A stretch of 64,000 nucleotides of DNA, taken from Thermaerobacter marianensis. Its GTDB lineage: Bacteria; Bacillota; Sulfobacillia; DVGY01. The stretch spans positions 89,501 through 153,500 of the forward strand of contig DYGY01000001.1 of NCBI GenBank assembly GCA_020724425.1, written 5' to 3'. The translations under genes were made by a program, and so were the position numbers. Shown here one piece after another: positions 2,402 to 61,990 of this stretch (positions within the stretch are counted from its first letter, which is position 1; every line of letters starts with the position of its first letter). The notes beneath the pieces were generated by a model. That model saw only the letters and a program-made list of their open reading frames with translations. It searched no databases and was not told where the DNA came from.

Positions 2402-4033
2402 GTGAAAACTATTGTTGCAGCAGCTGTTGGTGAGTGTGTTCATGTGGCTGGGCCTCTGAATTTTTTGAAACTGGCTGAAGAACAGGGGTATGAGACAACC
2501 TTTCTTGGTCCGGCTGTATCCATTGAGGAACTTTTAGGTGCAGTTATTGAAACTGATCCTGATATTGTGGCTGTAGGGTACAGGTTGACTCCTGAGACTG
2601 CCAGATATTTATTTATGGAGTTGGGTCAAGCCATCATGGAAACGGGTTTGGAGGATAAGGTGTTTATCTTTGGTGGTACTGATCCTGTAGCTAAAGTGGC
2701 TAAAGAAAGTGGGATTTTTGCTGAGGTTTTTGGTGGCAGTACACCAATTGAAGAGATTGTGGCTTTTTTGAAAGGTAAAGAGAGGGCCAAGGGAGAGATA
2801 AGCTATCCTGGTTCATTAAAAGGGAGAATTGAGTGGAAGGCACCGTGGCCGGTTATCAGGCATCATTTTGGTTTGCCAACACTTGAGGATACAGAGGCTG
2901 GTATCAGGAAGATTTCTGAAGCCAAGGTCTTAGATATTATTTCTTTGGGATTAGATCAGAATGCTCAGGAGGCTTTCTTCCAGCCCGAATTGGGAAAGAA
3001 GAGTCAGGATGGAGCTGGGGGGGTACCTGTACGTTCCTTTGAGGATTTTAGGAGTCTTTTTCTGGTTTCAAGGACTGGTAACTATCCTTTGATGCGAAGC
3101 TATAGTGGGACAAAGGATCTGGTTCCTTTAGCAGACGTGTTACATAGGAGTATTAATAATGCCTGGTCTGCTATTCCTCTAACCTGGTATAGTGTGCTTG
3201 ATGGTAGGGGTCCAAGGTCTGTTGCTGAGAGGGTAAGGGAGAGTCAGGAGGTTGCTAGATGGCATGGAGAAAGGGATATCCCTGTGGAGATGAATGAATC
3301 TCACCATTGGAGTCTAAGGGATGCCCATGACACTATTGCTGTTGCCATGGCGTATCTGGCAGCATATAACGCTAAGGAATCTGGTGTTAAAGAGTATATA
3401 GCTCAGTATATGTGGAATACACCTCCAGGTACCTCTTTTAGGATGGATCTAGCTAAGATGTTAGCTAAAAAAGAACTAATTGAGAGTCTTCATGATGAAG
3501 GTTTTGTAACTTACAGGCAGGTGCGGACCGGTCTTTCTAGTTATCCTGCTGATTTGGATATGGCTAAGGGGCAGTTGGCTTCCTCTACTCTTTTACAGAT
3601 GGCTTTAGAGCCTCATATTGTCCATGTGGTAAGTTTTTCTGAGGCTGATCATGCTGCAACTGCAGATGATGTCATTGAAAGCTGCAGGATTGCTGGACAG
3701 GTTATTAGAAATGCAATGCTTGGGCTACCTGATATGACAGCTGATCCTTTGGTGCAGGAAAGGAAAGAGGAGTTATTAAGGGAAGCAAAGATACTTTTAG
3801 AGGCTATTAACAGTCTTGGTCAGGATGGTCTTATTAATCCTGATGCTATCTCTAAAGCTATTGAGATTGGATTGCTAGATGCTCCTCACTTTAAAGGGAA
3901 TAGGTTTGCTAGGGGTGAACTTAAGACTAGAGAGGTTAATGGAGCCTATTATGCCATTGATGATAACGGGAAGATACTGAGGGAAGAGGAAAGAATAGAT
4001 AGGGTTTTTAAGAAGTATCTGAACCGCTCCTGA
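2402..4033 (+). CDS. fused cobalamin-binding domain (GlmS/MutS-like) + glutamate-mutase E-subunit-like barrel protein, 543 aa
   Basis: The N-terminal ~130 aa align collinearly with glutamate mutase S / methylmalonyl-CoA mutase B12 domains (KTIV..VG.C.H.AG ... AVIETDPDIV ... FGG). The canonical DxHxxG is replaced by ECVHVAG (Asp->Cys). The C-terminal ~400 aa show patchy collinear similarity to GlmE (e.g. ..AKESGVK.. and ..YPADLDMAKG.. versus GlmE ..AAEQGVK.. and ..FPQDESKAFG..). Only 2 Cys, so not a radical-SAM protein. Confidence 0.5.
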   Translation: MKTIVAAAVGECVHVAGPLNFLKLAEEQGYETTFLGPAVSIEELLGAVIETDPDIVAVGYRLTPETARYLFMELGQAIMETGLEDKVFIFGGTDPVAKVAKESGIFAEVFGGSTPIEEIVAFLKGKERAKGEISYPGSLKGRIEWKAPWPVIRHHFGLPTLEDTEAGIRKISEAKVLDIISLGLDQNAQEAFFQPELGKKSQDGAGGVPVRSFEDFRSLFLVSRTGNYPLMRSYSGTKDLVPLADVLHRSINNAWSAIPLTWYSVLDGRGPRSVAERVRESQEVARWHGERDIPVEMNESHHWSLRDAHDTIAVAMAYLAAYNAKESGVKEYIAQYMWNTPPGTSFRMDLAKMLAKKELIESLHDEGFVTYRQVRTGLSSYPADLDMAKGQLASSTLLQMALEPHIVHVVSFSEADHAATADDVIESCRIAGQVIRNAMLGLPDMTADPLVQERKEELLREAKILLEAINSLGQDGLINPDAISKAIEIGLLDAPHFKGNRFARGELKTREVNGAYYAIDDNGKILREEERIDRVFKKYLNRS

Positions 4034-4048
4034 TGGGGCGGTTTTTTC
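4022..4048 (+). terminator. rho-independent terminator closing the ODH / B12-mutase-like module
   Basis: AACCGC-loop-GCGGTT stem overlapping the stop codon, followed by TTTTTTC. Confidence 0.6.
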
Positions 4049-4106
4049 ATTCATAGAACGGTTGGTTCTGGCATATCGATTTAATGGTTTCCAAGGAGGA
4101 GATGCC

Positions 4107-6656
4107 ATGACCAACTGGTCTTTAGGTAGCTATCAGGATGTACTTAAGGAGTTAAGAACCTCTTTAGAGGGCTTATCTACCAAGGATAGTCAAAAGAGGT
4201 TAGAGGAGTTTGGCTATAACCGGTTGCCGGAAGGGCAAAAGACCAACTGGGTTCTAGTTTTTTTAGGTCAGTTTAAGGAATTAATGGTCCTAATCCTGCT
4301 AGCGGCAACAGTGGTCTCTTTCCTTTTAGGGGAAAGGGTTGATGCCATAACCATCGCAGTCATTGTTCTGCTTAATGCCATTCTAGGATTTGTGCAGGAA
4401 TTCAGGGCAGAACAGGCTTTAGAGGCATTAAAGAGTTATGCAGCTCCTATAGCTCGAGTTAGAAGAGATGGTAGGGTAGTTAAGATAGATGCAGAGGAGT
4501 TAGTACCAGGAGATATCTATTTGCTTGAAGCGGGTGATAGGGTGCCTGCAGATGGCAGGATTATTGAAGCCCATGAATGTGAGATTGATGAAGCGGCTTT
4601 AACCGGGGAATCTGTTCCGGTTAATAAGCGGGAGGAGACTTTAAGGGAAGCAAAGCCTTTAGCAGATACCGCCAACATGGTGTATCAGGGGACCATGGTT
4701 ACTAGGGGCAGGGCGATAGCGGTTTTGGTGGCAACAGGGGCAAAAACTGAGGTTGGCAAGATAGCTCATCTTTTGCAGGAGGCAACGGTAGGGATGACAC
4801 CTCTGCAGAAACGGTTGCATAAGCTTAGTATTGTGCTTGTAGCTGTCTGTCTTAGTGTTTCTGCTTTTGTGGCTTTAGCAGGGGTTATCAGGGGTGAGTC
4901 TATCTACAAGATGTTTCTAGCAGGTGTAAGTATGGCTGTAGCTGCTATCCCTGAAGGTCTACCAGCTATTGTAACTATTGCTTTGGCTATTGGGGTACAA
5001 AGAATGATAAAGATTAATGTCATTGTCAGAAGATTACCCACGGTAGAGACCTTAGGTTGTGCTACAGTTATCTGTTCAGATAAGACGGGAACTCTGACAG
5101 AGGGAAGGATGGCTCTAAGGGAGATAAGGTTTCAAAATAGGATATTGACTATAGATGAGATTGATAGTGATTTGGCAGAGAGTATTCTTCTGAGTACGGC
5201 TTTAGTTGAAGAGGGAGACCCCACTGAGGTTGCTCTGGTAAGGGGAGCTAAAGAAAAGGGGGTTTCAATAGAGGGTGTATTAAAAAGATGGGAGAAGCTT
5301 GGGGAGATTCCCTTTTCTTCTGAGCGAAAAATGATGACTGTAGCCTACAGGGATAGAAGGACAGGGGAAATCTGGGTCTTTAGCAAAGGGGCTATTGATG
5401 TCATCCTAGATAAAAGCCAAATGGTTGATAAGGTGAGGTTACACAAGGATAACGAAGAAATGGCGGGACTTTCTTTAAGAGTATTAGCTCTGGGTAAAAA
5501 GAAACTTACCTCTTTAGAGGAAGAGTGGGAAGAGGGTTTAGAGTTTCTGGCTTTGATGGGTATTTCTGACCCCCCCAGGAAAGAAGTGAAGCTCTCATTA
5601 GCAAAGAGCAGGAAAGCTGGTATAAAAACCATTATGGTTACAGGAGATCATCCCGCTACTGCTAAATCCATTGGGGAGCAGATTAATCTTTTGCCTCCTG
5701 GAGGGATTGTTCTAACAGGTGCTGAATTAGATAATCTTAGTGATCTGCAGTTAAAGAATCTTCTACCTAGGGTGTATGTACTAGCTCGAGTTACTCCTTC
5801 ACATAAGCTCAGAATTGTCAGGGTGTTAAAAGAGAGTGGTCACGTGGTGGCTATGACCGGTGATGGGGTTAATGATGCTCCTGCTGTTAAGGAAGCGGAT
5901 ATTGGTATAGCTATGGGTAGGAGTGGTACAGATGTAACTAAAGAGGCTGCCTCATTAGTTCTTTTAGAGGATAACTTTTCAGCTATTGTTGAGGCTATTG
6001 AACAGGGTAGAGCCATTTATGATAATATTCGTAAGTTTTTGCGCTATTTGCTTTCCTGTAATACTGGGGAGATTCTGGTTATGCTGGTGGGTACTCTGTT
6101 GGGTTTGCCTTTACCTTTGCTGCCAATTCATATTCTGCTTGTTAATCTAGTTACTGATGGTCTGCCTGCTCTGGCCTTAGGGGTGGAACCTCCCGATTCA
6201 GAAGTGATGACAAGGAAGCCAAGGGATCCTAAAGAGGGTATTTTAGCAGGGGGTCTAGGTATCAGGATAATTATGAAGGGTATAGCTATTGCTTTAGCAG
6301 CTATCGGGGTTTTTGTCTATCTTTTAAGTACTGGCAGTGATGTGGATAGGGCTAGGACAGCTGTTCTGGCATCATTGGTGCTTTCTCAGCTTGTGCATGC
6401 TTTTGAGGTGAGAACAGAGAACAGGTCATTATGGGAGCTAAATCTCTGGGGAAATCGCTATCTACCCTTAGCTGTTGGTTCCTCGTTATTGATTCTTTTG
6501 GGTGTTATTTATCTCCCCTTTGGAGCTATCGCTTTTCAGACTGTACCATTGGGATTATATGAGTGGTCAGTTGTGGTCCTGTTTACAGCTTTAAGTGCTG
6601 GTGTGGTAGATATTTTTAGTGTTAATCTAAGGAGAGTAGCTTTTGGGAGTCTGTGA
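4107..6656 (+). CDS. P-type cation-transporting ATPase, Ca2+-ATPase (PMCA/SERCA-like, YloB-type)
   Basis: AAGGAGG RBS before ATG 4107. DKTGTLT phosphorylation motif, TGDGVNDAPA hinge motif, ~10 TM segments. Confidence 0.8.
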   Translation: MTNWSLGSYQDVLKELRTSLEGLSTKDSQKRLEEFGYNRLPEGQKTNWVLVFLGQFKELMVLILLAATVVSFLLGERVDAITIAVIVLLNAILGFVQEFRAEQALEALKSYAAPIARVRRDGRVVKIDAEELVPGDIYLLEAGDRVPADGRIIEAHECEIDEAALTGESVPVNKREETLREAKPLADTANMVYQGTMVTRGRAIAVLVATGAKTEVGKIAHLLQEATVGMTPLQKRLHKLSIVLVAVCLSVSAFVALAGVIRGESIYKMFLAGVSMAVAAIPEGLPAIVTIALAIGVQRMIKINVIVRRLPTVETLGCATVICSDKTGTLTEGRMALREIRFQNRILTIDEIDSDLAESILLSTALVEEGDPTEVALVRGAKEKGVSIEGVLKRWEKLGEIPFSSERKMMTVAYRDRRTGEIWVFSKGAIDVILDKSQMVDKVRLHKDNEEMAGLSLRVLALGKKKLTSLEEEWEEGLEFLALMGISDPPRKEVKLSLAKSRKAGIKTIMVTGDHPATAKSIGEQINLLPPGGIVLTGAELDNLSDLQLKNLLPRVYVLARVTPSHKLRIVRVLKESGHVVAMTGDGVNDAPAVKEADIGIAMGRSGTDVTKEAASLVLLEDNFSAIVEAIEQGRAIYDNIRKFLRYLLSCNTGEILVMLVGTLLGLPLPLLPIHILLVNLVTDGLPALALGVEPPDSEVMTRKPRDPKEGILAGGLGIRIIMKGIAIALAAIGVFVYLLSTGSDVDRARTAVLASLVLSQLVHAFEVRTENRSLWELNLWGNRYLPLAVGSSLLILLGVIYLPFGAIAFQTVPLGLYEWSVVVLFTALSAGVVDIFSVNLRRVAFGSL

Positions 6657-53017: not shown

Positions 53018-53395
53018 ATGAGTAAAGTAGCTATACCGGCATTAGGACAGGATCTTCTGGCAAAGTATTCACCAAGTGTAGGACATTCACCATATCTTCT
53101 GTATGTGGATTCAGAGACAAAGGCCTATGAAGTGAAGGATAATCCCGGCTATTCAGCAGAATCCCATGCAGGTATGGTCGCTGCCAAAGCTATTTGGGAA
53201 GATGGTGCAGAGGTAGTTTTAGGTCATCAGTTTGGTCCTCATCCGGCAGAGTTCTTTGAGAAAAAAGGCATTGAGGTCTATACAGTCACCCTGACAGGAA
53301 CAGTAGAAGAAATACTAAATGCTTATTTGAATAACAAGTTTCACAAATTAACCACAGAAGATACCGCTAATCATCAGTGTGGTCATCATCATTAA
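53018..53395 (+). CDS. NifB/NifX/NafY-family (dinitrogenase FeMo-cofactor-binding fold) small protein with a His-rich C-terminus
   Basis: IAIPALGQD...GHSPYLLYVD...ESHAGMVAAKAIWEDGAEVVLGHQFGPHPAEFFEKKGIEVY is the PF02579 pattern. Ends in CGHHH. Confidence 0.6.
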   Translation: MSKVAIPALGQDLLAKYSPSVGHSPYLLYVDSETKAYEVKDNPGYSAESHAGMVAAKAIWEDGAEVVLGHQFGPHPAEFFEKKGIEVYTVTLTGTVEEILNAYLNNKFHKLTTEDTANHQCGHHH

Positions 53396-53424
53396 TTGAC
53401 AGTATCTCTAGTGATGGTTAAAAT
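53396..53424 (+). promoter_or_regulatory. sigma-A promoter TTGACA-17-TAAAAT for the tetR-ubiD-ubiA-ubiX-ABC operon
   Basis: Consensus -35, good -10, 30 nt upstream of the tetR ATG. Confidence 0.6.
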
Positions 53425-53437
53425 GAATATGTATTCA
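53424..53437 (+). promoter_or_regulatory. 14-bp perfect palindrome TGAATATGTATTCA overlapping -10/+1 (candidate TetR operator)
   Basis: Inverted repeat TGAATA-tg-TATTCA at a classic autoregulatory operator position. Confidence 0.45.
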
Positions 53438-53453
53438 GTTTTGAGGTGGGTAG

Positions 53454-54101
53454 ATGGCATATCAACGGACAGAGCGTGTTGTTGAAAGGTTGCAGAGCAA
53501 TGAACAGGCTCTATTAACTGCTGCTCAAGAGCTTTTTGCCAAACAGGGGTATCATGGTACAACAATTAAGCAGATTGCTAACAGAGCTGGTTTTGCTGTA
53601 GGTACTTTCTATTTGTATTTTGAAAACAAGGAAGAGCTCTTTATTCGGCTCTTGAATGAACTTTTTAACAGACTGATTGAAGAGGTTAGAGAGAGTCGGC
53701 AGGGTAAGGTTGACCCTATTGCCAAGTTAACTGCTTCCATGGATAAAGCTGTAGAGATTTTTGCACAAGAAGAAGAACTATCAAGAATTCTCCTTTTACA
53801 AAGCACAGGCGCTAATGCTCGTTTCTCTGAAAGGCTAGCAGAACTTCATGGAGCTCTAGCTATTTTGGTTAAGGAGGATCTCTCTGAGGCATTAGATATG
53901 GGTATCATTGATATGGATAAAGAGTCTCTTTCGACAGCTGCCAAGGCTCTTGTGGGTACTTTCTATGAGAATATCCTTGGTTGGTTAAGGGGTAGAGAGC
54001 CGGAATCATTGATAGATATCCTGCCAATATTGACTCGATATAACTTGAGAGGTCTAGGAATATCGAACCCAGATAAATACTTATCTTTAGGAGGAAATTA
54101 A
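53454..54101 (+). CDS. TetR/AcrR-family transcriptional regulator
   Basis: HTH GYHGTTIKQIANRAGFAVGTFYLYFENKEEL. Stop overlaps the ubiD start. Confidence 0.85.
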   Translation: MAYQRTERVVERLQSNEQALLTAAQELFAKQGYHGTTIKQIANRAGFAVGTFYLYFENKEELFIRLLNELFNRLIEEVRESRQGKVDPIAKLTASMDKAVEIFAQEEELSRILLLQSTGANARFSERLAELHGALAILVKEDLSEALDMGIIDMDKESLSTAAKALVGTFYENILGWLRGREPESLIDILPILTRYNLRGLGISNPDKYLSLGGN

Positions 54102-55555
54102 TGGCCTACGAAAATCTAAGAGAATTTTTAACTGATATTGAAAACAAGGGTGAACTAAGACGGATAGCTGCTCCTGTTTCGTCTGATTTGGAAATTACTG
54201 AAATTGCCGATAGGGTGGTAAAGGCTGGGGGTCCCACACTTCTTTTTGAAAATGTGGATGGTGGAGATATCCCTGTCGCTATTGGTCTTTTTGGTACAAG
54301 AGAGAGAACTGCAATGGCTTTAGGAGTTGAGGAGCTTGATGAACTGAGCCTTGCCATGCAGGATCTTTTGGATCTGACCAAGACTAAAGCTGTTAGTTTT
54401 ATGGACAAGTTATCTGTTCTACCAAAACTAGCCCAGTTAGCTTCCTTTCCACCTAAAATGGTGAAAAAGGCGCCTGTGCAAGAAGTAGTCTTGACAGGAG
54501 ATGAAGTTGATCTTACTAAGATACCGGTACTTAGAACCTGGCCTTTAGATGCAGGTCCCTTCGTTACTCTGCCCATGGTAATCACCAAGGATCCTGAAAC
54601 TGGTGAACGTAACATGGGCATGTATCGGATGCAGGTTTATGATAAGAACACTACAGCCATGCACTGGCATAGACACAAGACAGGTGCTAGACATCTAGAA
54701 AAAGCCAAGCAAATGGGTAAAAAGCTTGAAGTAGCGGTAGCTTTAGGTGGAGATCCCGCTACCATCTATTCTGCCTCTGCCCCATTGCCAGATGGAATAG
54801 ATGAGTTTCTTTTTGCTGGATTCCTTAGGAAAAAGGGAGTTAACCTGATTAAAGGTAAAACAGTTGATCTGGAAGTACCGGCTGAAGCTGAGATAATTAT
54901 TGAAGGTTATATTGATCCAGAGGAGCCCTGGAGGAGAGAAGGTCCTTTTGGTGACCATACAGGCTTCTATTCTTTAGCTGATGATTATCCAGTCTTACAC
55001 GTGACCGCCATTACTAGAAGGCAAGATGCCATATACCCCGCCACTATCGTTGGTAAGCCGATTATGGAGGATTTCTGGTTAGGACAGGCAACTGAGCGTT
55101 TGTTCCTGCCTCTTTTTAGAATGATTTTGCCAGAGGTGGTTGACTACCATATGCCAGCCGCAGGTGTTTTCCATAACCTTGTCTTTGTATCTATTGACAA
55201 GAAGTATCCGGGTCATGCATTTAAGGTAGGTAGTGGGATGTTAGGCATGGGACTTATGATGCTAGGTAAGGTAATTGTGGTTGTTGATGCTGATGTCAAT
55301 GTTTCCGACCCTGAAGAGGTCTGGTGGGTAGCATTAAATAACATTGACCCTGAAAGAGATGCCCGCTTTATGCCAGGACCATTAGATGTTCTTGACCATG
55401 CTTCAAGGGAGTTTACCTATGGCACCAAGATGATAATAGATGGTACCAAGAAATGGCCAGAGGAAGGCTTTACCCGTGAATGGCCAGAAAAAATTAATAT
55501 GAGCCAGGAAATTAAGGATCTTGTTAATAAGCGCTGGCAGGAGTATGGGATCTAA
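54101..55555 (+). CDS. ubiD: UbiD-family (prenylated-FMN-dependent) aromatic acid decarboxylase
   Basis: 484 aa with conserved UbiD N-terminal and central motifs. Tight operon with ubiA and ubiX. Confidence 0.8.
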   Translation: MAYENLREFLTDIENKGELRRIAAPVSSDLEITEIADRVVKAGGPTLLFENVDGGDIPVAIGLFGTRERTAMALGVEELDELSLAMQDLLDLTKTKAVSFMDKLSVLPKLAQLASFPPKMVKKAPVQEVVLTGDEVDLTKIPVLRTWPLDAGPFVTLPMVITKDPETGERNMGMYRMQVYDKNTTAMHWHRHKTGARHLEKAKQMGKKLEVAVALGGDPATIYSASAPLPDGIDEFLFAGFLRKKGVNLIKGKTVDLEVPAEAEIIIEGYIDPEEPWRREGPFGDHTGFYSLADDYPVLHVTAITRRQDAIYPATIVGKPIMEDFWLGQATERLFLPLFRMILPEVVDYHMPAAGVFHNLVFVSIDKKYPGHAFKVGSGMLGMGLMMLGKVIVVVDADVNVSDPEEVWWVALNNIDPERDARFMPGPLDVLDHASREFTYGTKMIIDGTKKWPEEGFTREWPEKINMSQEIKDLVNKRWQEYGI

Positions 55556-55569
55556 CTGGGGGTTTATAA

Positions 55570-56442
55570 ATGCAAAGAGTAACTAGCTGGCTTAACCGGT
55601 TAGGTTTGTTAGGTGAACTGGTCAAGTTTGAGCATACCATTTTTGCATTGCCATTTGCCTATGCTGGAGCATTTCTGGGTGCAAGAGGTATGCCTACATG
55701 GACTGAACTTATTCTAATTACCCTGGCTATGGTAGGTGCTAGGACTTCTGCCATGGGTTTTAATAGACTAATTGACAAACAGATAGATGCTAAGAATCCA
55801 CGAACAAAGGATAGACCGTTGGCTAAGGGAGTGGTATCAGATTTTAGTGTTCTTTCCATCTCTATTGGGGGGTTAATCCTTTTAGGTGTTTCTGCTTGGT
55901 TGCTTAATCCGGTAGCGGCTCTTTTTCTGCCACTGGTGATTCCGATTCTGGTTATCTATCCATATACCAAGAGATTCACCTGGCTCTGCCACTATTGGTT
56001 AGGTTTGGCACAGTTTTTTGCACCCTTTGGTGGTTGGATAGCAGTGACTGGTCAGGTTGAGCTAGGTGCCATAATTCTTGGCTTAATTGTAGGTCTTTGG
56101 ATTGCTGGCTTTGATATTATCTACGCTACCCAGGACTTTGAGTTTGATCGGCAAGAGAAATTGCATTCTGTTCCCGCTAATTTTGGTCTGGAAAGGGCCT
56201 TAAATCTGGCTAGGTTGACTCATGTGGTAGTGATATTTCTTTTAGTGGTGTTCCATGTGGGTAATAATATGGGCCTTGCTTTCCTGATAGGTATAATCAT
56301 TGCAGCTCTAATGCTTATCTATGAACACTCATTAGTCTCTGCAGAAGACCTATCTAGGGTGAATGTGGCCTTTTTCAACGTCAATGCCATGATTAGCATT
56401 GTTCTCTTTGTGGCAGTGGTGCTAGATTTGTTTGTGCTTTAA
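55570..56442 (+). CDS. ubiA: UbiA-family aromatic prenyltransferase (4-hydroxybenzoate polyprenyltransferase-like)
   Basis: FNRLIDKQIDAKNPRTKDRP (NxxxDxxxD) and a second Asp-rich motif (DIIYATQDFEFD). 8-9 TM helices. Confidence 0.8.
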   Translation: MQRVTSWLNRLGLLGELVKFEHTIFALPFAYAGAFLGARGMPTWTELILITLAMVGARTSAMGFNRLIDKQIDAKNPRTKDRPLAKGVVSDFSVLSISIGGLILLGVSAWLLNPVAALFLPLVIPILVIYPYTKRFTWLCHYWLGLAQFFAPFGGWIAVTGQVELGAIILGLIVGLWIAGFDIIYATQDFEFDRQEKLHSVPANFGLERALNLARLTHVVVIFLLVVFHVGNNMGLAFLIGIIIAALMLIYEHSLVSAEDLSRVNVAFFNVNAMISIVLFVAVVLDLFVL

Positions 56443-56457
56443 GAAAGGGGTTTTCTC

Positions 56458-57069
56458 TTGAGATATGTGGTTGGGATAACTGGTGCTAGTGGAACCATCT
56501 ATGGTCAACGCTTAGTTGAGGTACTACTTTTAGCAAATCATAGAGTTGACTTAATAGTGACTGATGCTGGCTTTGAGGTAGGCAGGTTAGAGCTTGGCTG
56601 GGAGACCTCAAAAGATAACTTGGAGTCTAATATAGAGTTTCTCAATAGGTTCTATGCTAGCAGAGGAGTACCGACAGAAAACCTTAGGGTATATGATCTT
56701 TTTAATATAGCCAGTGACATAGCCAGTGGTTCAGTCAATGTTGAAGCAATGATAGTGGTTCCCTGCAGTATGGGTACTCTAGCTTCAATAGCTACAGGAC
56801 AATCAGGCAATCTCTTAGAGAGGGTTGCCGATGTCATGTTAAAGGAAAAAAGACAATTGGTTCTTGTACCTAGAGAAACACCCTTTAGCACTATTCATTT
56901 AAGGAATCTATTAACGGTGGCAGAGGCAGGAGCTCATGTACTTCCAGCCATGCCAGGCTTTTATCACAGACCAGAAACATTAGAGGATGTAGTTGATTTT
57001 GTGGTAGGCAAGATATTAAATACTCTAAATCTACCACAGGATATATTGCAACAATGGATGGGGGATTAA
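56458..57069 (+). CDS. ubiX: flavin prenyltransferase UbiX
   Basis: YVVGITGASGTIYGQRLVEVLL N-terminus. Flavoprotein-fold decarboxylase family. Confidence 0.85.
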   Translation: MRYVVGITGASGTIYGQRLVEVLLLANHRVDLIVTDAGFEVGRLELGWETSKDNLESNIEFLNRFYASRGVPTENLRVYDLFNIASDIASGSVNVEAMIVVPCSMGTLASIATGQSGNLLERVADVMLKEKRQLVLVPRETPFSTIHLRNLLTVAEAGAHVLPAMPGFYHRPETLEDVVDFVVGKILNTLNLPQDILQQWMGD

Positions 57070-57070
57070 T

Positions 57071-58009
57071 GTGCGTAAGTATATGGCTTTAGGATTAATT
57101 TTCTTATTAGTCATGGGTATATTCTCAGGCTGTGGTCAAAAGGAAGAGGATACTCTAACAATCGGACTACTACCGATTGTTGATGCCCTACCTTTGTTAG
57201 TCGCTAGAGATAACGGCTATTTTGAAGAGGTTGCTGTGGATGTTGAACTAGTTTTCTTCCAGAGCGCTTTAGATAGGGATAGTGCTTTTCAGGCAGGGAG
57301 TCTTGATGGTGCCGTAGGTGACCTTTTAGCAGCAGCCTTGCTTGAACAATCAATTGGGGTCACAGTTATTGCGACAATACTTGGAGTATCAGCGGATGAA
57401 GGTGCCTTTGCCATTCTAGCCGCCCCTGATTCAGATATCCATACTGTTGAGGATTTAAAGGGTGTACCAATAGGGATATCACCCAATTCAATAATTGAAT
57501 ATACCACTGATAAGATGCTTTTGGCCGAGGGCTTTTCACAGGATGACATAGAGAAGACAGTAGTCATAAATATCAGTCAGAGGATGGAGATGCTCCTATC
57601 TGGGCAGCTTCAAGCGGCAAATCTGCCTGATCCTTTAGCAACCCTAGCAGAAACAAAGGGTGCTAGAAAAATTATTGATGATACTCAAGGAGAAAATATC
57701 TCTCAAACGGTATTAATCATGACCGATAAAGCAGTAGATACAAAAGCTTCACAGATTGAGAAGCTAATGGAAGCTTATGTAATGGCCATTAGGGATATTC
57801 AAGAGAATCCTGAGGCATATAGAGGACTACTAGAAGAAGAGCTTCGCCTACCTGAAGGTCTATCTGAGTTTGAGATTGATTCATTTTCCTATCCTCAGGT
57901 ACCCACTGAGGCTGAAATAGAGGCAGTAATCTCTTGGATGTTAGATAAAGACATATTAAAAAATACCATTAAGTATGAGGAATTAATCAATGAATCCTTT
58001 ATCCCCTAA
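57071..58009 (+). CDS. ABC transporter substrate-binding lipoprotein, NitT/TauT (NMT1/SsuA-like) family
   Basis: GTG 1 nt after the ubiX stop. Signal peptide with lipobox FSGC. Periplasmic-binding-protein type 2 fold. Confidence 0.7.
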   Translation: MRKYMALGLIFLLVMGIFSGCGQKEEDTLTIGLLPIVDALPLLVARDNGYFEEVAVDVELVFFQSALDRDSAFQAGSLDGAVGDLLAAALLEQSIGVTVIATILGVSADEGAFAILAAPDSDIHTVEDLKGVPIGISPNSIIEYTTDKMLLAEGFSQDDIEKTVVINISQRMEMLLSGQLQAANLPDPLATLAETKGARKIIDDTQGENISQTVLIMTDKAVDTKASQIEKLMEAYVMAIRDIQENPEAYRGLLEEELRLPEGLSEFEIDSFSYPQVPTEAEIEAVISWMLDKDILKNTIKYEELINESFIP

Positions 58010-58769
58010 GGTAGAGGTAAATAACTTAAGTGTTAGCTATAGAAATAGTGGACAGGGCAGTGTGGAGGCCCTGTCCAATGTTAGTTTGGGTCTGAAGAAG
58101 GGTGAAAGCTGTGCTTTAATTGGCCCTTCAGGTTGTGGCAAAACCACATTGCTTTATGTCTTGGCAGGTCTACTTAAACCCACTATAGGACAAGCAAACA
58201 TTGATGGTCAGCCAATTAGACCAAAACGCAAGGAAACAGCCATAATCCTGCAAGATTATGGCCTTATGCCCTGGAAGACAGTTTGGGAAAACACCGCTTT
58301 AGGACTAGTTATTCGTAAGCTACCAGAAAAGGATATTGAAAAAAGAGTCTCAAGGATATTAGCCAAGCTTGGTCTAGAAAAGCTAAGAAATAGTTATCCA
58401 CATCAGTTAAGTGGTGGTCAAAGACAAAGAGTAGCCATAGCCAGATCTCTGGCATTGGAACCTGACCTCCTCTTAATGGATGAGCCATTTTCGTCTTTGG
58501 ATGCATTAACTCGAGAGGAACTGCAAGAGGATCTTTTACACTTATGGCAGGAAAAAGAACTTACCATGGTACTTGTGACTCACAGTATTGAAGAAGCAGC
58601 ATATCTGGGCCAGAGAATATTTATCTTCTCTAAAGGACCTGGTAGGGTAGTGGCGGAGCTAAGAAATTCGGGGGTTGGCAAAGAGGATTATCGCAGCAGT
58701 GAAGAGTATCATGCGAGGACTGATGAAATTAGACAGATACTTCTAAAACATCGCTTACAGAGTATCTAG
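57990..58769 (+). CDS. ABC transporter ATP-binding protein (NitT/TauT family)
   Basis: Walker A GPSGCGKTT, LSGGQRQRVAIAR signature, Walker B LLLMDEP. Confidence 0.9.
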   Translation: MNPLSPKVEVNNLSVSYRNSGQGSVEALSNVSLGLKKGESCALIGPSGCGKTTLLYVLAGLLKPTIGQANIDGQPIRPKRKETAIILQDYGLMPWKTVWENTALGLVIRKLPEKDIEKRVSRILAKLGLEKLRNSYPHQLSGGQRQRVAIARSLALEPDLLLMDEPFSSLDALTREELQEDLLHLWQEKELTMVLVTHSIEEAAYLGQRIFIFSKGPGRVVAELRNSGVGKEDYRSSEEYHARTDEIRQILLKHRLQSI

Positions 58770-58786
58770 ACTGGGGTAGGAAGATA

Positions 58787-59533
58787 ATGAATAGATGGTA
58801 TACAGGTTTCTATTATGTGCTGGCATTAGGTATTCTTCTAATATCCTGGGAACTCTTATCTCTGTGGGTTAATTCAATTGCTTTACCATCACCTCGCAGT
58901 GCTTTAGGTTCTTTTTTTGAATTGGCAGCTAAAGGCTCTCTAAGAAGTCATTTCCTTGTTAGTGCCTACAGAGTTACTGCAAGTATTGCTTTAGCATTAG
59001 TAACTGCTGTACCTTTAGGGCTGTTTCTAGGTCGGGTTAAAGCCTTAGATCGTTTGGCTGTACCATTAATATTTCTAACTTACCCTATTCCTAAAATCGT
59101 TTTCTTACCGGTTTTTATGGCTCTATTTGGTTTAGGTGATCTTTCTAAGATTACTCTGGTAGCTCTCATTGTTTTCTACCAGATTCTTGTGACTACCTGG
59201 GATGAAGCAAGATCCATTAATCAACAGATGATCTATTCAGTGACATCTTTAGGAGCAGGGGAAAGGGATATCTACAGGCATGTACTATTCCCTGCAGTCC
59301 TACCTAAGATATTTACTTCCATGAGGATATCTTTGGGTACAGCCATAGCTGTCCTCTTCATTGCGGAAACCTATGCTACAAACGTTGGTCTTGGCTATTT
59401 CTTGATTGAGACTTGGTCTAGGGGTGCTTATGATCAAATGTATGCTGGTATTATTGGTATGGGTATCCTTGGCTTTACTCTATATCAGCTCTTTTCAGTC
59501 TTTGAAAGGATATTATGTCCTTGGACCAAATAG
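58787..59533 (+). CDS. ABC transporter permease (NitT/TauT family)
   Basis: Six TM segments with an EAA-like loop. Confidence 0.8.
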   Translation: MNRWYTGFYYVLALGILLISWELLSLWVNSIALPSPRSALGSFFELAAKGSLRSHFLVSAYRVTASIALALVTAVPLGLFLGRVKALDRLAVPLIFLTYPIPKIVFLPVFMALFGLGDLSKITLVALIVFYQILVTTWDEARSINQQMIYSVTSLGAGERDIYRHVLFPAVLPKIFTSMRISLGTAIAVLFIAETYATNVGLGYFLIETWSRGAYDQMYAGIIGMGILGFTLYQLFSVFERILCPWTK

Positions 59534-59559
59534 GCTACCATTTACGGTAGTCTTTTTTT
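59534..59559 (+). terminator. terminator closing the tetR-ubiDAX-ABC operon
   Basis: GGCTACC-atttac-GGTAGTC then TTTTTTTCTG. Confidence 0.6.
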
Positions 59560-59612
59560 CTGTAAAGGGATTTTCCTACTTTCAAAGAAATATCTCTATG
59601 GAGGGATGCCTA

Positions 59613-60827
59613 GTGAGAGAGATACGAGCTATCGGTGAAGACTTAAAGAAGTTTGCTGAGATTTCGGCAAATGCCTATCCTGGAATGAAGCGAACAGCTG
59701 AAGAGTTATATGAGAGATATAAGGAGCTATTGGAGGTAGACAAGACATCTAGTTTTTATGGTATCTATGAAGATGAACTTCTAGGTGGTATGCGACTATT
59801 AGATTTAAAACTAAACTACCTAGGCAAAATTATTCCAGCAGCTGGTTTGGGGTTAGTATCGGTTGATCTCATCAGAAAGAAACAGGGCATTGCTAGGGAT
59901 ATGGTTAAATATTTCTTAGATCATTATAGAGCAAAGGGGACTTATCTTGCTCTTTTGTATCCATTTAGGCATGATTTCTACAAGGAGATGGGGTTTGGTT
60001 ACGGCTCCAAGATGCATCGATATTCCTTTAAACCTCTAAGCCTTTCTGGAAAAGCAAAGGGCATTACCTACCTTGGTGACACTGATATCCCAGAGATTGA
60101 AGCTTTCTATACAGAATACGCTAAGCAAAAACATGGATATTGCTTGATGAGCAATTGGGATCTGGCATATCTCAAAAGAGAGTACATAAGCAAAAGGAGT
60201 ATTGTAGGTTACAGGGCTAATGGGAAGTTAAGGGGATATCTGACCTTCTATTTTGATTTGGGTGAGAATTTCCTGCACAATAATCTGGTTATTGATGACT
60301 GGTTCTGGTTAGATATTGATGCTCTAGAAGCACTAAGTGGTTTTCTTAGAAGCCAGGCTGATCAGTTTGACAGGATTATCTATCATACAACGGACCCAGA
60401 TTTTGTATATCTTCTTTCAGATGTTGGTGATGGTACCAACCGATTGCTATCTGGTGGCTATCATGAAAGCAATACTAGTGGTGTCGGGCTCATGTATAGA
60501 ATAATTGACCTACGAGCGTTTTTGGAACAGACAAGCTATCGCGAGTATAAAGGTAATCTAGACCTGACTCTTGTTGTTAAAGACTCATTTGCTCCTGAAA
60601 ATGAGGGGGAACATCATCTATCCTTTGTTGATGGCCAACTGATCATTAGAAATGAGCCTGTAAGTGGGTATAGGTTAGAGATAGATATTGCTGATCTCTC
60701 TTCTCTTTTGATGGGCAGTGTTAGTTTAAGAAGCCTTGCGCGTCTGGGTAGAGTATCTGGGGATATGGAATCCTTAGAAGATCTCTTTTCGGTACGGGAT
60801 AGGCCTGAATGTGTGACCCATTTCTAG
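59613..60827 (+). CDS. Eis-like GNAT acetyltransferase with a C-terminal sterol-carrier-like domain
   Basis: GTG 7 nt after GGAGGG. GNAT fold (LGKIIPAAGLGLVSVDLIRKKQGIARDMV) plus a ~200-aa C-terminal domain. The ORF-track N-terminal extension overlaps the permease and was rejected. Confidence 0.6.
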   Translation: MREIRAIGEDLKKFAEISANAYPGMKRTAEELYERYKELLEVDKTSSFYGIYEDELLGGMRLLDLKLNYLGKIIPAAGLGLVSVDLIRKKQGIARDMVKYFLDHYRAKGTYLALLYPFRHDFYKEMGFGYGSKMHRYSFKPLSLSGKAKGITYLGDTDIPEIEAFYTEYAKQKHGYCLMSNWDLAYLKREYISKRSIVGYRANGKLRGYLTFYFDLGENFLHNNLVIDDWFWLDIDALEALSGFLRSQADQFDRIIYHTTDPDFVYLLSDVGDGTNRLLSGGYHESNTSGVGLMYRIIDLRAFLEQTSYREYKGNLDLTLVVKDSFAPENEGEHHLSFVDGQLIIRNEPVSGYRLEIDIADLSSLLMGSVSLRSLARLGRVSGDMESLEDLFSVRDRPECVTHF

Positions 60828-61141: not shown

Positions 61142-61990
61142 ATGGCTAAGGTCTTAGGAGTACTGGCTAGTGCTCGGCATCTAGGTAACTCAGAGGTTCT
61201 GTTAAGAGAGTCATTAAGTGTATGTCAGGAGCATGGTCTTAAAACAGAGATTGTTCGCCTGACTGATCTAAATATGTCATTCTGTCATGGCTGTTTGCGC
61301 TGCATCCTCACTGGCAAGGAATGTCGGATAAAGGATGACATACCACTTTTTTTAGATAAGCTCCTAGCTTTTGATGCAGTCATTGTTGCTGCTCCCACCT
61401 ATATGCTTGGCCCTACAGGTATTGTCAAATCAGTGACTGATAGATTCTTATGCCGGGTGGATAGAGTCTTGGATAGAAGAACTATAAGACCCGGAGCGGT
61501 AATTAGTGTTGCTGGATTAGAGGAATGGAAAGGGCAGGGGCTTGGTCAGTTGAGTCTTTTCCTTTTGTCCTTTGGTATTAGACCCTTAGGTTTCATGGAA
61601 GCCTATGCTCCAGGTCCCGGAGAGGTTGTCCTAGAAAAGGCCAATATAGAAAAAGCAAGAGAGATTGGGGAGCTAATTAGTAACTCCATACTGAATCAGA
61701 CACTAATAAGGCAAGAGGTGGGTCCCAACAGGTGTCCTGTTTGTTTTGGTGATGTCTTTAGATTCCTTCCCGAAGGTACGGTTCATTGTCCTAATTGTGG
61801 TTTAGAAGGAGAACTAACTGATTCAGGTATATCTTTTCCCAAGAACTATGAAGAGCTTCATCGCTTTACCTGGGAGCACCTTCAAAGTCATATTGAGGAC
61901 TGGGTTAAAGCTAGTGCTCCTAGATACCTTGCTTCACGCAAAGACATACAAAAAGAGATTATCAATCTAAAGGAGAAGTGGGGCGAGTGA
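61142..61990 (+). CDS. iron-sulfur flavoprotein (NADPH-dependent FMN reductase fold, Isf-like) with a C-terminal zinc ribbon
   Basis: Compact Cys motif CHGCLRCILTGKEC (C-x2-C-x2-C-x7-C) in a flavodoxin-like fold. C-terminal CPVC...CPNC. Confidence 0.6.
   Translation: MAKVLGVLASARHLGNSEVLLRESLSVCQEHGLKTEIVRLTDLNMSFCHGCLRCILTGKECRIKDDIPLFLDKLLAFDAVIVAAPTYMLGPTGIVKSVTDRFLCRVDRVLDRRTIRPGAVISVAGLEEWKGQGLGQLSLFLLSFGIRPLGFMEAYAPGPGEVVLEKANIEKAREIGELISNSILNQTLIRQEVGPNRCPVCFGDVFRFLPEGTVHCPNCGLEGELTDSGISFPKNYEELHRFTWEHLQSHIEDWVKASAPRYLASRKDIQKEIINLKEKWGE

Follow-up and report, generated by a model that had tools for sequence, protein, structure and literature searches.

Does a bacterium that encodes the last enzymes of menaquinone synthesis also encode a pump for the compound on which they act? 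The question is raised by a seven-gene operon of Thermaerobacter marianensis, located in a 64,000-nucleotide stretch of DNA that is referred to, at its full length, as the window. In this operon a TetR-family repressor is followed by a UbiD-family decarboxylase (MqnL), a UbiA-family prenyltransferase (MqnP-like), a UbiX-family flavin prenyltransferase (MqnM) and an ATP-binding cassette (ABC) importer composed of a substrate-binding protein (SBP), an ATPase and a permease. Many bacteria depend on their neighbours for menaquinone or its soluble precursors. Importers of quinone precursors have been expected, but none is known (PMC4746308; PMC5738691). The pump of the window is a strong candidate for an importer of vitamin K2 building blocks: in the reading developed here, to which we assign a probability of about 0.5, it would import a soluble naphthoquinone head-group precursor that is then prenylated and decarboxylated to demethylmenaquinone. 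What is new is a transporter subfamily tied to menaquinone prenylation in many lineages; the enzyme trio itself is already known.

Linkage of the transporter to menaquinone prenylation genes

The transporter was followed through two sets of relatives. A scan of species-representative genomes with a 12-sequence SBP alignment returned 80 loci, nearly all from Bacillota. UbiD and/or UbiA, in some cases together with UbiX or TetR, adjoin the SBP-ATPase-permease genes at 13 of these 80 loci, which are spread over at least four separate clades of the SBP tree; locus L004 is a further case. The linked genes occur in the orders UbiD-UbiA-SBP-ATPase-permease and UbiD-SBP-ATPase-permease-UbiA, the latter amounting to an insertion between mqnL and mqnP, and as a divergent UbiA-UbiD pair beside UbiX-SBP. 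The fullest module, UbiD-UbiA-SBP-ATPase-permease-UbiX-TetR-MenG with all genes co-directional, is present in the Symbiobacterium thermophilum assembly (L023:7385-14504). At five further loci of the 80, all from one clade, the divergently adjacent gene is MenA (464 bits against a cut-off of 277).

The second set consisted of ten distant SBP homologues (36-43% identity), picked solely on the length of their source sequence, with Anaerolineae, Tectomicrobia, Desulfobulbaceae and Armatimonadetes among the source labels. Seven of the ten adjoin late menaquinone genes and three have no quinone neighbour. The arrangement UbiD...UbiA-SBP-ATPase(-permease) recurs in four loci (L088, L089, L173 and L174), the last of which also contains MenG and UbiX; the two UbiDs that were scored, those of L088 and L089, pass the MqnL model with 619-623 bits. 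The remaining linked loci read SBP-ATPase-permease-MenA (L086) and SBP-ATPase-permease-MenG-MenA (L090 and L092). MenA of the latter two scores 329-342 bits, or 313-342 in the wider range, the cut-off being 264. The module has MenG behind it in L023, L037 and L174.

Taken over both sets, linkage to late menaquinone genes is found in about ten lineages of several phyla and in at least six gene orders. By a rough estimate, some 2% of random 12-kb neighbourhoods would contain a late menaquinone gene; how often the linkage is observed, and still more how varied the gene orders are, rules out chance. Whatever prenylation system the organism has, MqnL/MqnP or MenA, the transporter goes with it. That the importer serves the quinone enzymes, as the first-pass annotation had proposed from the operon in the window, is much better supported now that the same subfamily is seen linked to menaquinone prenylation genes across phyla, and the transporter probably does work with these enzymes. 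No early-pathway gene was recognised beside the transporter, either in the Pfam tables of the contig look-ups or among the annotated recurrent neighbour clusters, and the entry point of the cargo is therefore placed at prenylation.

The first-pass annotation had regarded a transporter-coupled arrangement of this kind as undescribed, and a search of open-access papers and preprints brought up no account of menaquinone prenylation genes coupled to a transporter. The supplement of Zhi et al. 2014 lists taxa with no pathway calls for the relevant genera, and the literature on the Qo motif and on Clostridium aceticum contains nothing on transport.

Enzymes and transporter of the operon

Gene identities were assigned with Pfam and NCBIfam profile models, by comparing bit scores with the cut-offs of the models. 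MqnL passes TIGR03701 (647.5 bits, cut-off 495.9) and stays below the cut-offs for UbiD proper (436 vs 788) and VdcC (249 vs 650) as well as those of the phenylphosphate carboxylase models. For the UbiA protein, three MqnP models rank best: MqnP_DT gives 343.7 bits against a clade-specific cut-off of 430, and MqnP_SCO4491 303 against 420. The broader TIGR01475 UbiA-like model is passed (325 vs 181), and the score on proteobacterial UbiA lies under the cut-off (131 vs 275). The UbiX protein passes both TIGR00421 (196.9 vs 108.9 bits) and NF004685 (195.1 vs 188). Judged by these scores, the enzyme trio of the window is most probably the known late futalosine module MqnL/MqnP/MqnM, in agreement with what had been proposed from the sequence at first sight. 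It was comparative genomics that gave MqnP, MqnL and MqnM their names and their proposed roles, prenylation and decarboxylation of 1,4-dihydroxy-6-naphthoate (PMC4746308). The same three enzyme families lie adjacent in the described mqnL-mqnP-mqnM cluster of the SCO4490-SCO4492 type (PMC4746308), to which the window adds, in one operon, a dedicated TetR in front and a three-gene ABC importer behind. The order UbiD-UbiA-UbiX is also found in locus L128 and in many metagenomic loci.

MqnL of the window shares 54-59% identity with transporter-linked MqnLs and up to 65% with unlinked metagenomic ones. A specialised MqnL paralogue was rejected, since the unlinked enzymes are as similar as the linked ones; being no closer to linked than to unlinked MqnLs, the protein looks like an ordinary pathway enzyme.

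The importer set is complete for the TauT/NitT type, with one exported SBP of the NMT1 fold, one BPD_transp_1 permease and one ABC ATPase. The SBP carries the lipoprotein signal MRKYMALGLIFLLVMGIFSGC, in which the lipobox FSGC is visible, and import is the direction suggested by the lipoprotein SBP and the permease type. None of the curated transporter models is reached: the SBP lies under the SsuA_fam cut-off (106.9 vs 163.5), the best NCBIfam model of the ATPase is that of the taurine ATPase TauB (209.8 vs 357), those of the permease are SaoP, TauC (95.6 vs 342) and SsuC (91.6 vs 347), all likewise under their cut-offs, and the nitrate model NtrB gives 67 against 209. Sulfonate, taurine and nitrate transporters (SsuABC, TauABC, NrtABC) were rejected on these family cut-offs. 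By profile scores, the transporter is a TauT/NitT-class ABC importer outside every characterised family.

The structure model of the SBP (predicted local distance difference test, pLDDT, 92.7) has a periplasmic-binding-protein fold. The nearest solved folds retrieved with Foldseek are SsuA, TauA, ThiY, Thi5 and PqqT, at 13-20% identity and E values of about 1e-14 to 1e-16; a search of solved structures by sequence yielded no close match. SBP homologues at 35-56% identity are numerous, the closest one among species-representative genomes being that of Firmicutes bacterium UBA3576 (56% identical). The menaquinone-linked subfamily was delimited by an SBP with a full-length identity of at least about 35%, in which LPDPLA, R171 and W289 are conserved, encoded beside a TauC-like permease and an ATPase; the window SBP has all of these features and lies next to MqnL/MqnP in addition.

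Among characterised systems, ThiXYZ with ThiY (PDB 3IX1), PqqT (PDB 9B1U) and the TauT/NitT family (TC 3.A.1.17) share the SBP fold and the architecture of SBP, ATPase and permease, and their role in salvage of cofactors or cofactor precursors matches the one proposed here. The structure of PqqT with bound pyrroloquinoline quinone (PQQ) indicates that this class of SBP fold can hold a quinone carboxylate. In contrast to ThiY and PqqT, to which it is only 13-20% identical, the window SBP is preceded by no riboswitch and has menaquinone prenylation genes as neighbours; the hallmarks of ThiXYZ and RibXY, namely a riboswitch for thiamine pyrophosphate (TPP) or flavin mononucleotide (FMN) and linkage to thiamine or riboflavin genes, are lacking.

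The subfamily shows several variations. A c-type cytochrome domain with a CxxCH motif is appended C-terminally in four SBP homologues (P0048, P0107, P0110 and P0114), and a cytochrome-fused SBP at L090:2563-3753 heads the SBP-ATPase-permease-MenG-MenA cluster of that locus. In a Desulfobulbaceae locus with no quinone gene nearby (L087:6480-6977), a Flavin_Reduct-domain gene ends 24 nt before the SBP gene; its product could reduce an imported quinone. At L175:6001-9587 an SBP homologue is followed by a double ATPase of the energy-coupling factor (ECF) type and a CbiQ/EcfT component, which replace the TauT-type ATPase and permease in an unusual pairing. Five Desulfosporosinus loci (L033, L041, L049, L050 and L085, at about 3700-6400) contain a second, unrelated NMT1-type SBP with its own ATPase and permease some 4 kb upstream of the menaquinone-linked type; the two systems are separated by genes for an EamA transporter and a class A penicillin-binding protein. 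Group II intron RNA domains were seen a few kb upstream of unlinked transporters in a Desulfitobacterium locus (L035:4763-6687) and a Thermoanaerobacteraceae locus (L031:9053-9217).

Cargo, proposed mechanism and alternatives

The operon could work in the following manner: a FadR-like TetR would bind TGAAT-N4-ATTCA over the transcription start and keep the operon off until its effector appears. The lipoprotein SBP may then capture the soluble head-group precursor outside the membrane and hand it to the permease and ATPase for import. The cargo here would be 1,4-dihydroxy-6-naphthoate or its oxidised form, and in the MenA-linked relatives 1,4-dihydroxy-2-naphthoate (DHNA). MqnP presumably attaches a polyprenyl chain to the imported compound, and MqnL, with prenylated FMN (prFMN) made by MqnM, may remove the carboxyl group to yield demethylmenaquinone, which a methyltransferase encoded elsewhere would complete to menaquinone. 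A precedent is the salvage of DHNA by organisms that have only MenA or MenA/MenG, such as Streptococcus agalactiae and gut isolates (PMC4746308, PMC5738691), which follows the same logic of a soluble head group being imported and late enzymes finishing the quinone. The known cases, however, belong to the classical MenA route and have no identified transporter (PMC5738691), whereas the window is of the futalosine type and has a candidate transporter encoded in the operon.

A dihydroxynaphthoate as the cargo comes close to an even bet. Residues presumed to line the cleft, judged from their position in the predicted secondary structure and the usual cleft positions of the fold, are conserved in all contexts (D38, S65, D84, S137, R171, D187, D204 and W289) and are rather acidic. 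At a 70% majority threshold, no specificity positions emerged between MenA-linked and MqnL/P-linked SBPs, and the residue sets of the two contexts are disjoint only at columns 164 and 255. Column 164 is serine in all eight MenA-linked copies and in none of the 18 MqnL/P-linked ones, two groups that are not phylogenetically independent; it is also serine in unlinked Desulfosporosinus and Desulfitobacterium copies. The column would fit isomer specificity, as a candidate marker only. A redox-active cargo would fit, given the cytochrome c fusions and the adjacent flavin reductase. Rfam detected no riboswitch, TPP and FMN types included, either in the window or ahead of the transporter at 15 related loci, which argues against salvage of the thiamine or riboflavin type.

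A number of observations weigh against a naphthoate importer. About 60 of the 80 Bacillota copies have no quinone gene nearby. The reverse scan, in which metagenomes were searched with an MqnL alignment and the best 80 loci kept (51-65% identical to the window MqnL), found UbiA adjacent in 45 of them and UbiX in 37; the transporter was adjacent in a single one, L128, which has exactly the order of the window. Hence mqnL-mqnP-mqnM is the common core and the transporter an optional addition. The presumed cleft, with D38, D84, D187 and D204, would be mostly acidic and would present no obvious site for an anionic naphthoate, and its identity in MenA- and MqnP-linked copies would be easier to reconcile with a single shared cargo than with two isomers. 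The nearest solved relatives, all distant, bind sulfonates, pyrimidines, pyridoxal phosphate (PLP) or PQQ. Four of the five loci that make up the MenA-linked Bacillota clade (L063, L065, L067 and L070; e.g. L065:3836-4708) have a gene for pyridoxamine kinase (NF005491, 412 bits) downstream of the transporter, directly after the permease in L065 and L070; among the clues to the cargo, this is the only one that points in another direction. Finally, the late futalosine steps have themselves been assigned only by comparative genomics (PMC4746308).

How far the import of a head-group precursor is needed, and whether such a precursor is what the pump carries, can be weighed against this background. 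A stricter version, nested in the precursor-import reading, holds that the organism lacks mqnA-E, is auxotrophic for the head group and makes menaquinone only from an imported precursor, with the repressor switching the late pathway on when that precursor is available. Late enzymes and importer under one dedicated repressor are a layout typical of inducible salvage, an ordinary, housekeeping-like MqnL is nonetheless under regulation, and early-pathway genes are seen neither in the window nor beside related modules. The absence of mqnA-E from the 64-kb window, however, says nothing about the rest of the genome: the parts checked outside the operon (1-42 kb and 50.8-62.5 kb) carry housekeeping genes, e.g. 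for fatty-acid synthesis, smc, ffh, rimM, trmD, rplS, lepB and rnhB, and pathway genes are commonly scattered. The transporter family, moreover, also occurs in Desulfitobacterium, Desulfosporosinus, Moorellales and Thermincola, which make menaquinone themselves, and vitamin biosynthesis operons often include a salvage transporter alongside the full pathway. Strict dependence on import is thus unlikely; salvage may supplement synthesis rather than replace it. Somewhat less likely again is a pump that serves menaquinone metabolism with another cargo, be it menadione, 1,4-naphthoquinone, a shuttle such as 2-amino-3-carboxy-1,4-naphthoquinone, a quinone breakdown product or a leaked intermediate that is recaptured. 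The constancy of the presumed cleft beside MenA and MqnP/MqnL speaks for such a common cargo, as do the cytochrome c fusions and flavin reductase, which point to a quinone or quinol, and the position of the transporter in the middle of complete late modules, e.g. L174 and L023. Yet its constant partners, a prenyltransferase and in the futalosine type also a decarboxylase, imply an unprenylated, carboxylated substrate, MenA requires a carboxylated substrate, and column 164 separates the two contexts.

That the transporter brings in a nutrient with no bearing on quinones, for instance a B6 vitamer, a thiamine pyrimidine precursor or a sulfonate, and that its place next to quinone genes has no functional meaning, is improbable. 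Its fold and family are those of SsuA, TauA, ThiY and Thi5, a cationic or polyhydroxy ligand would match the acidic cleft, and the pyridoxamine kinase and the many Bacillota copies with no quinone neighbour are readily accommodated, but the recurrent linkage in so many lineages and gene orders, set against the random estimate, the scores below the sulfonate, taurine and nitrate cut-offs and the lack of any riboswitch all tell against it. A role in feeding the prFMN system, with riboflavin/FMN or with prenol for dimethylallyl phosphate, is hardly credible. The SBP gene begins immediately behind ubiX, and riboflavin transporters of the TauT/NitT-type ABC family have been predicted; the subfamily is, however, also linked to MenA or MenG-MenA modules that lack UbiD and UbiX and have no requirement for prFMN, UbiX is missing from the surroundings of many UbiD-UbiA-linked loci, and no FMN riboswitch is present. 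The supply of prFMN or riboflavin was rejected on the persistence of the linkage in those MenA/MenG modules.

Import of a head-group precursor may be extended to a broader proposal, which we hold tentatively and with the odds somewhat against it: the SBP/ABC subfamily, found in Bacillota, Chloroflexota, Tectomicrobia-like and other lineages, would be the missing importer of menaquinone head-group precursors. Its members would be adapted to the 2-carboxy isomer (DHNA) where MenA is the partner and to the 6-carboxy isomer where MqnP/MqnL is, and residue 164 would mark the specificity. In the window organism a lipid-sensing, FadR-like repressor would govern the importer jointly with the entire late pathway, and at the molecular level the importer would underlie the cross-feeding of quinone precursors in anaerobic communities. 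A transporter family beside the prenylation step in either menaquinone pathway is a concrete and cheaply testable candidate for an acknowledged gap. If the proposal is true, quinone-precursor auxotrophy and cross-feeding would become predictable from genomes, which could help in growing uncultured anaerobes, and the largely predicted late futalosine steps would receive indirect support in a pathway that is a drug target in Helicobacter, Campylobacter and Chlamydia.

Repressor, transcription signals and surroundings

The coordinates of the operon and its signals are collected in Table 1. The seven genes are co-directional and tightly packed between 53454 and 59533, with junctions, in order, of a 1-nt overlap, gaps of 14, 15 and 1 nt (the last between ubiX and the SBP gene), a 20-nt overlap of the ATPase start with the SBP gene and a 17-nt gap, and all seven start codons are preceded by a purine-rich ribosome-binding site. 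The first-pass annotation had listed the same genes in a single operon closed by a terminator near 59534, and both the layout and the terminator, a stem-loop followed by a T-run, hold up. The seven genes very probably form one functional unit.

Table 1. Features of the operon and its transcription signals (window coordinates; aa, amino acids).
Feature	Coordinates	Strand	Basis or remarks
Sigma-70-type promoter	53396..53424	+	TTGACA (53396-53401), 17-nt spacer, TAAAAT (53419-53424); 11/12 positions match
Probable TetR operator	53424..53437	.	TGAATA-tg-TATTCA; overlaps last base of -10 box and likely transcription start
TetR-family repressor, FadR-like, 215 aa	53454..54101	+	TetR_N domain, E = 6.6e-18
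MqnL, predicted UbiD-family prFMN-dependent menaquinone-pathway decarboxylase, 484 aa	54101..55555	+	TIGR03701 mena_SCO4490 equivalog
MqnP-like UbiA-family polyprenyltransferase, 290 aa	55570..56442	+	Best NCBIfam model MqnP_DT
MqnM, UbiX-family flavin prenyltransferase, predicted to make prFMN for MqnL, 203 aa	56458..57069	+	TIGR00421, NF004685
Lipoprotein SBP, NMT1/TauT-type, 312 aa	57071..58009	+	Pfam NMT1, NMT1_2
ABC ATPase, TauB/SsuB-like, 259 aa	57990..58769	+	Pfam ABC_tran, E = 5e-36
ABC permease, TauC/SsuC-like, 248 aa	58787..59533	+	Pfam BPD_transp_1
Intrinsic terminator	59532..59560	+	8-bp stem (4 G-C pairs), 6-nt loop, stem-loop 59532-59553, then TTTTTTT

The promoter, described at first as a consensus TTGACA-17-TAAAAT, is present where it had been placed but is near-consensus. 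It is the top-scoring site between 52000 and 61000, a region in which promoter-like sites are not enriched (13 found vs 21.4 expected), and it is credible because of its position within the 58-nt gap in front of the first gene. It starts one base after the stop codon of that gene (53018-53395), which encodes a 125-aa Nitro_FeMo-Co (NifX/NifB C-terminal-like) protein with a C-terminal CGHHH and whose stop codon abuts the -35 box. Since no terminator lies in between, read-through into the operon from rnhB and the Nitro_FeMo-Co gene is possible.

The element over the transcription start had been taken for a perfect 14-bp palindrome; it is a 6+2+6 inverted repeat with a non-symmetric 2-nt centre, TGAATATGTATTCA at 53424-53437 as compared with its reverse complement TGAATACATATTCA. 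Although an inverted repeat with 6-bp arms is common by chance, TGAAT-N4-ATTCA occurs once in the window, as compared with 0.17 expected, and among 175 loci it was found only in copies of the window locus and upstream of the orthologous TetR in L054/L082. There, the TetR gene is preceded by AAATGAATT-ag-AATTCATTT, which lies behind a TTGACA-17-TATTAT promoter. The half-site also matches the FadR box of B. subtilis, WTGAATGAMTANTCATTCAN (PMC5397183). In the G+C-rich DNA of the Symbiobacterium locus L023 the motif TGAAT-N4-ATTCA is absent. Full-length TetR orthologues in the same module are those of L054/L082 (36% identity) and L023 (32%). We conclude from these comparisons that the inverted repeat is the predicted operator of the repressor, through which it would control the whole operon; the overlap of operator and promoter suggests autoregulation.

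The nearest solved structures to the repressor are the fatty-acyl-CoA regulators FadR 3WHB and 1VI0 (aligned residues 19-187, E about 6e-18), and the score on the FadR equivalog NF053878 (78 bits vs a cut-off of 200) indicates that the protein is not FadR itself. Bacillus FadR (YsiA), which responds to long-chain acyl-CoA (PDB 3WHB, 5GPC; PMC5397183), is the best structural relative and has a similar operator half-site, TGAAT/ATTCA. The window TetR differs in that it would control quinone and transport genes, not beta-oxidation, through one simple 6+2+6 site instead of a longer double repeat. An aromatic acid had been suggested as the ligand; by analogy with FadR, the effector may instead be long-chain and lipid-like, for instance an acyl-CoA, a polyprenyl diphosphate or the quinone itself, which is to be taken as a lead only. 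Menaquinone synthesis is rarely seen under transcriptional control, and the conserved repressor/operator pair would be one such instance.

The G+C content of the operon (0.419) equals that of the window, and its third-position G+C is likewise like that of the surroundings. A horizontally acquired island was rejected on this match, and the operon is regarded as resident DNA. Downstream, at 59598-60827, lies a gene for an Eis-like GNAT + SCP2 acetyltransferase, which is intact in the window and in L002 and L003; in L001 (12543-13758) a frameshift or an assembly error has split it into reading frames of 162 and 251 aa. A 282-aa protein encoded at 61142-61990, two genes downstream of the operon, matched no NCBIfam model; it combines an FMN_red domain with a Cys-rich C-terminal half (CPVC...CPNC).

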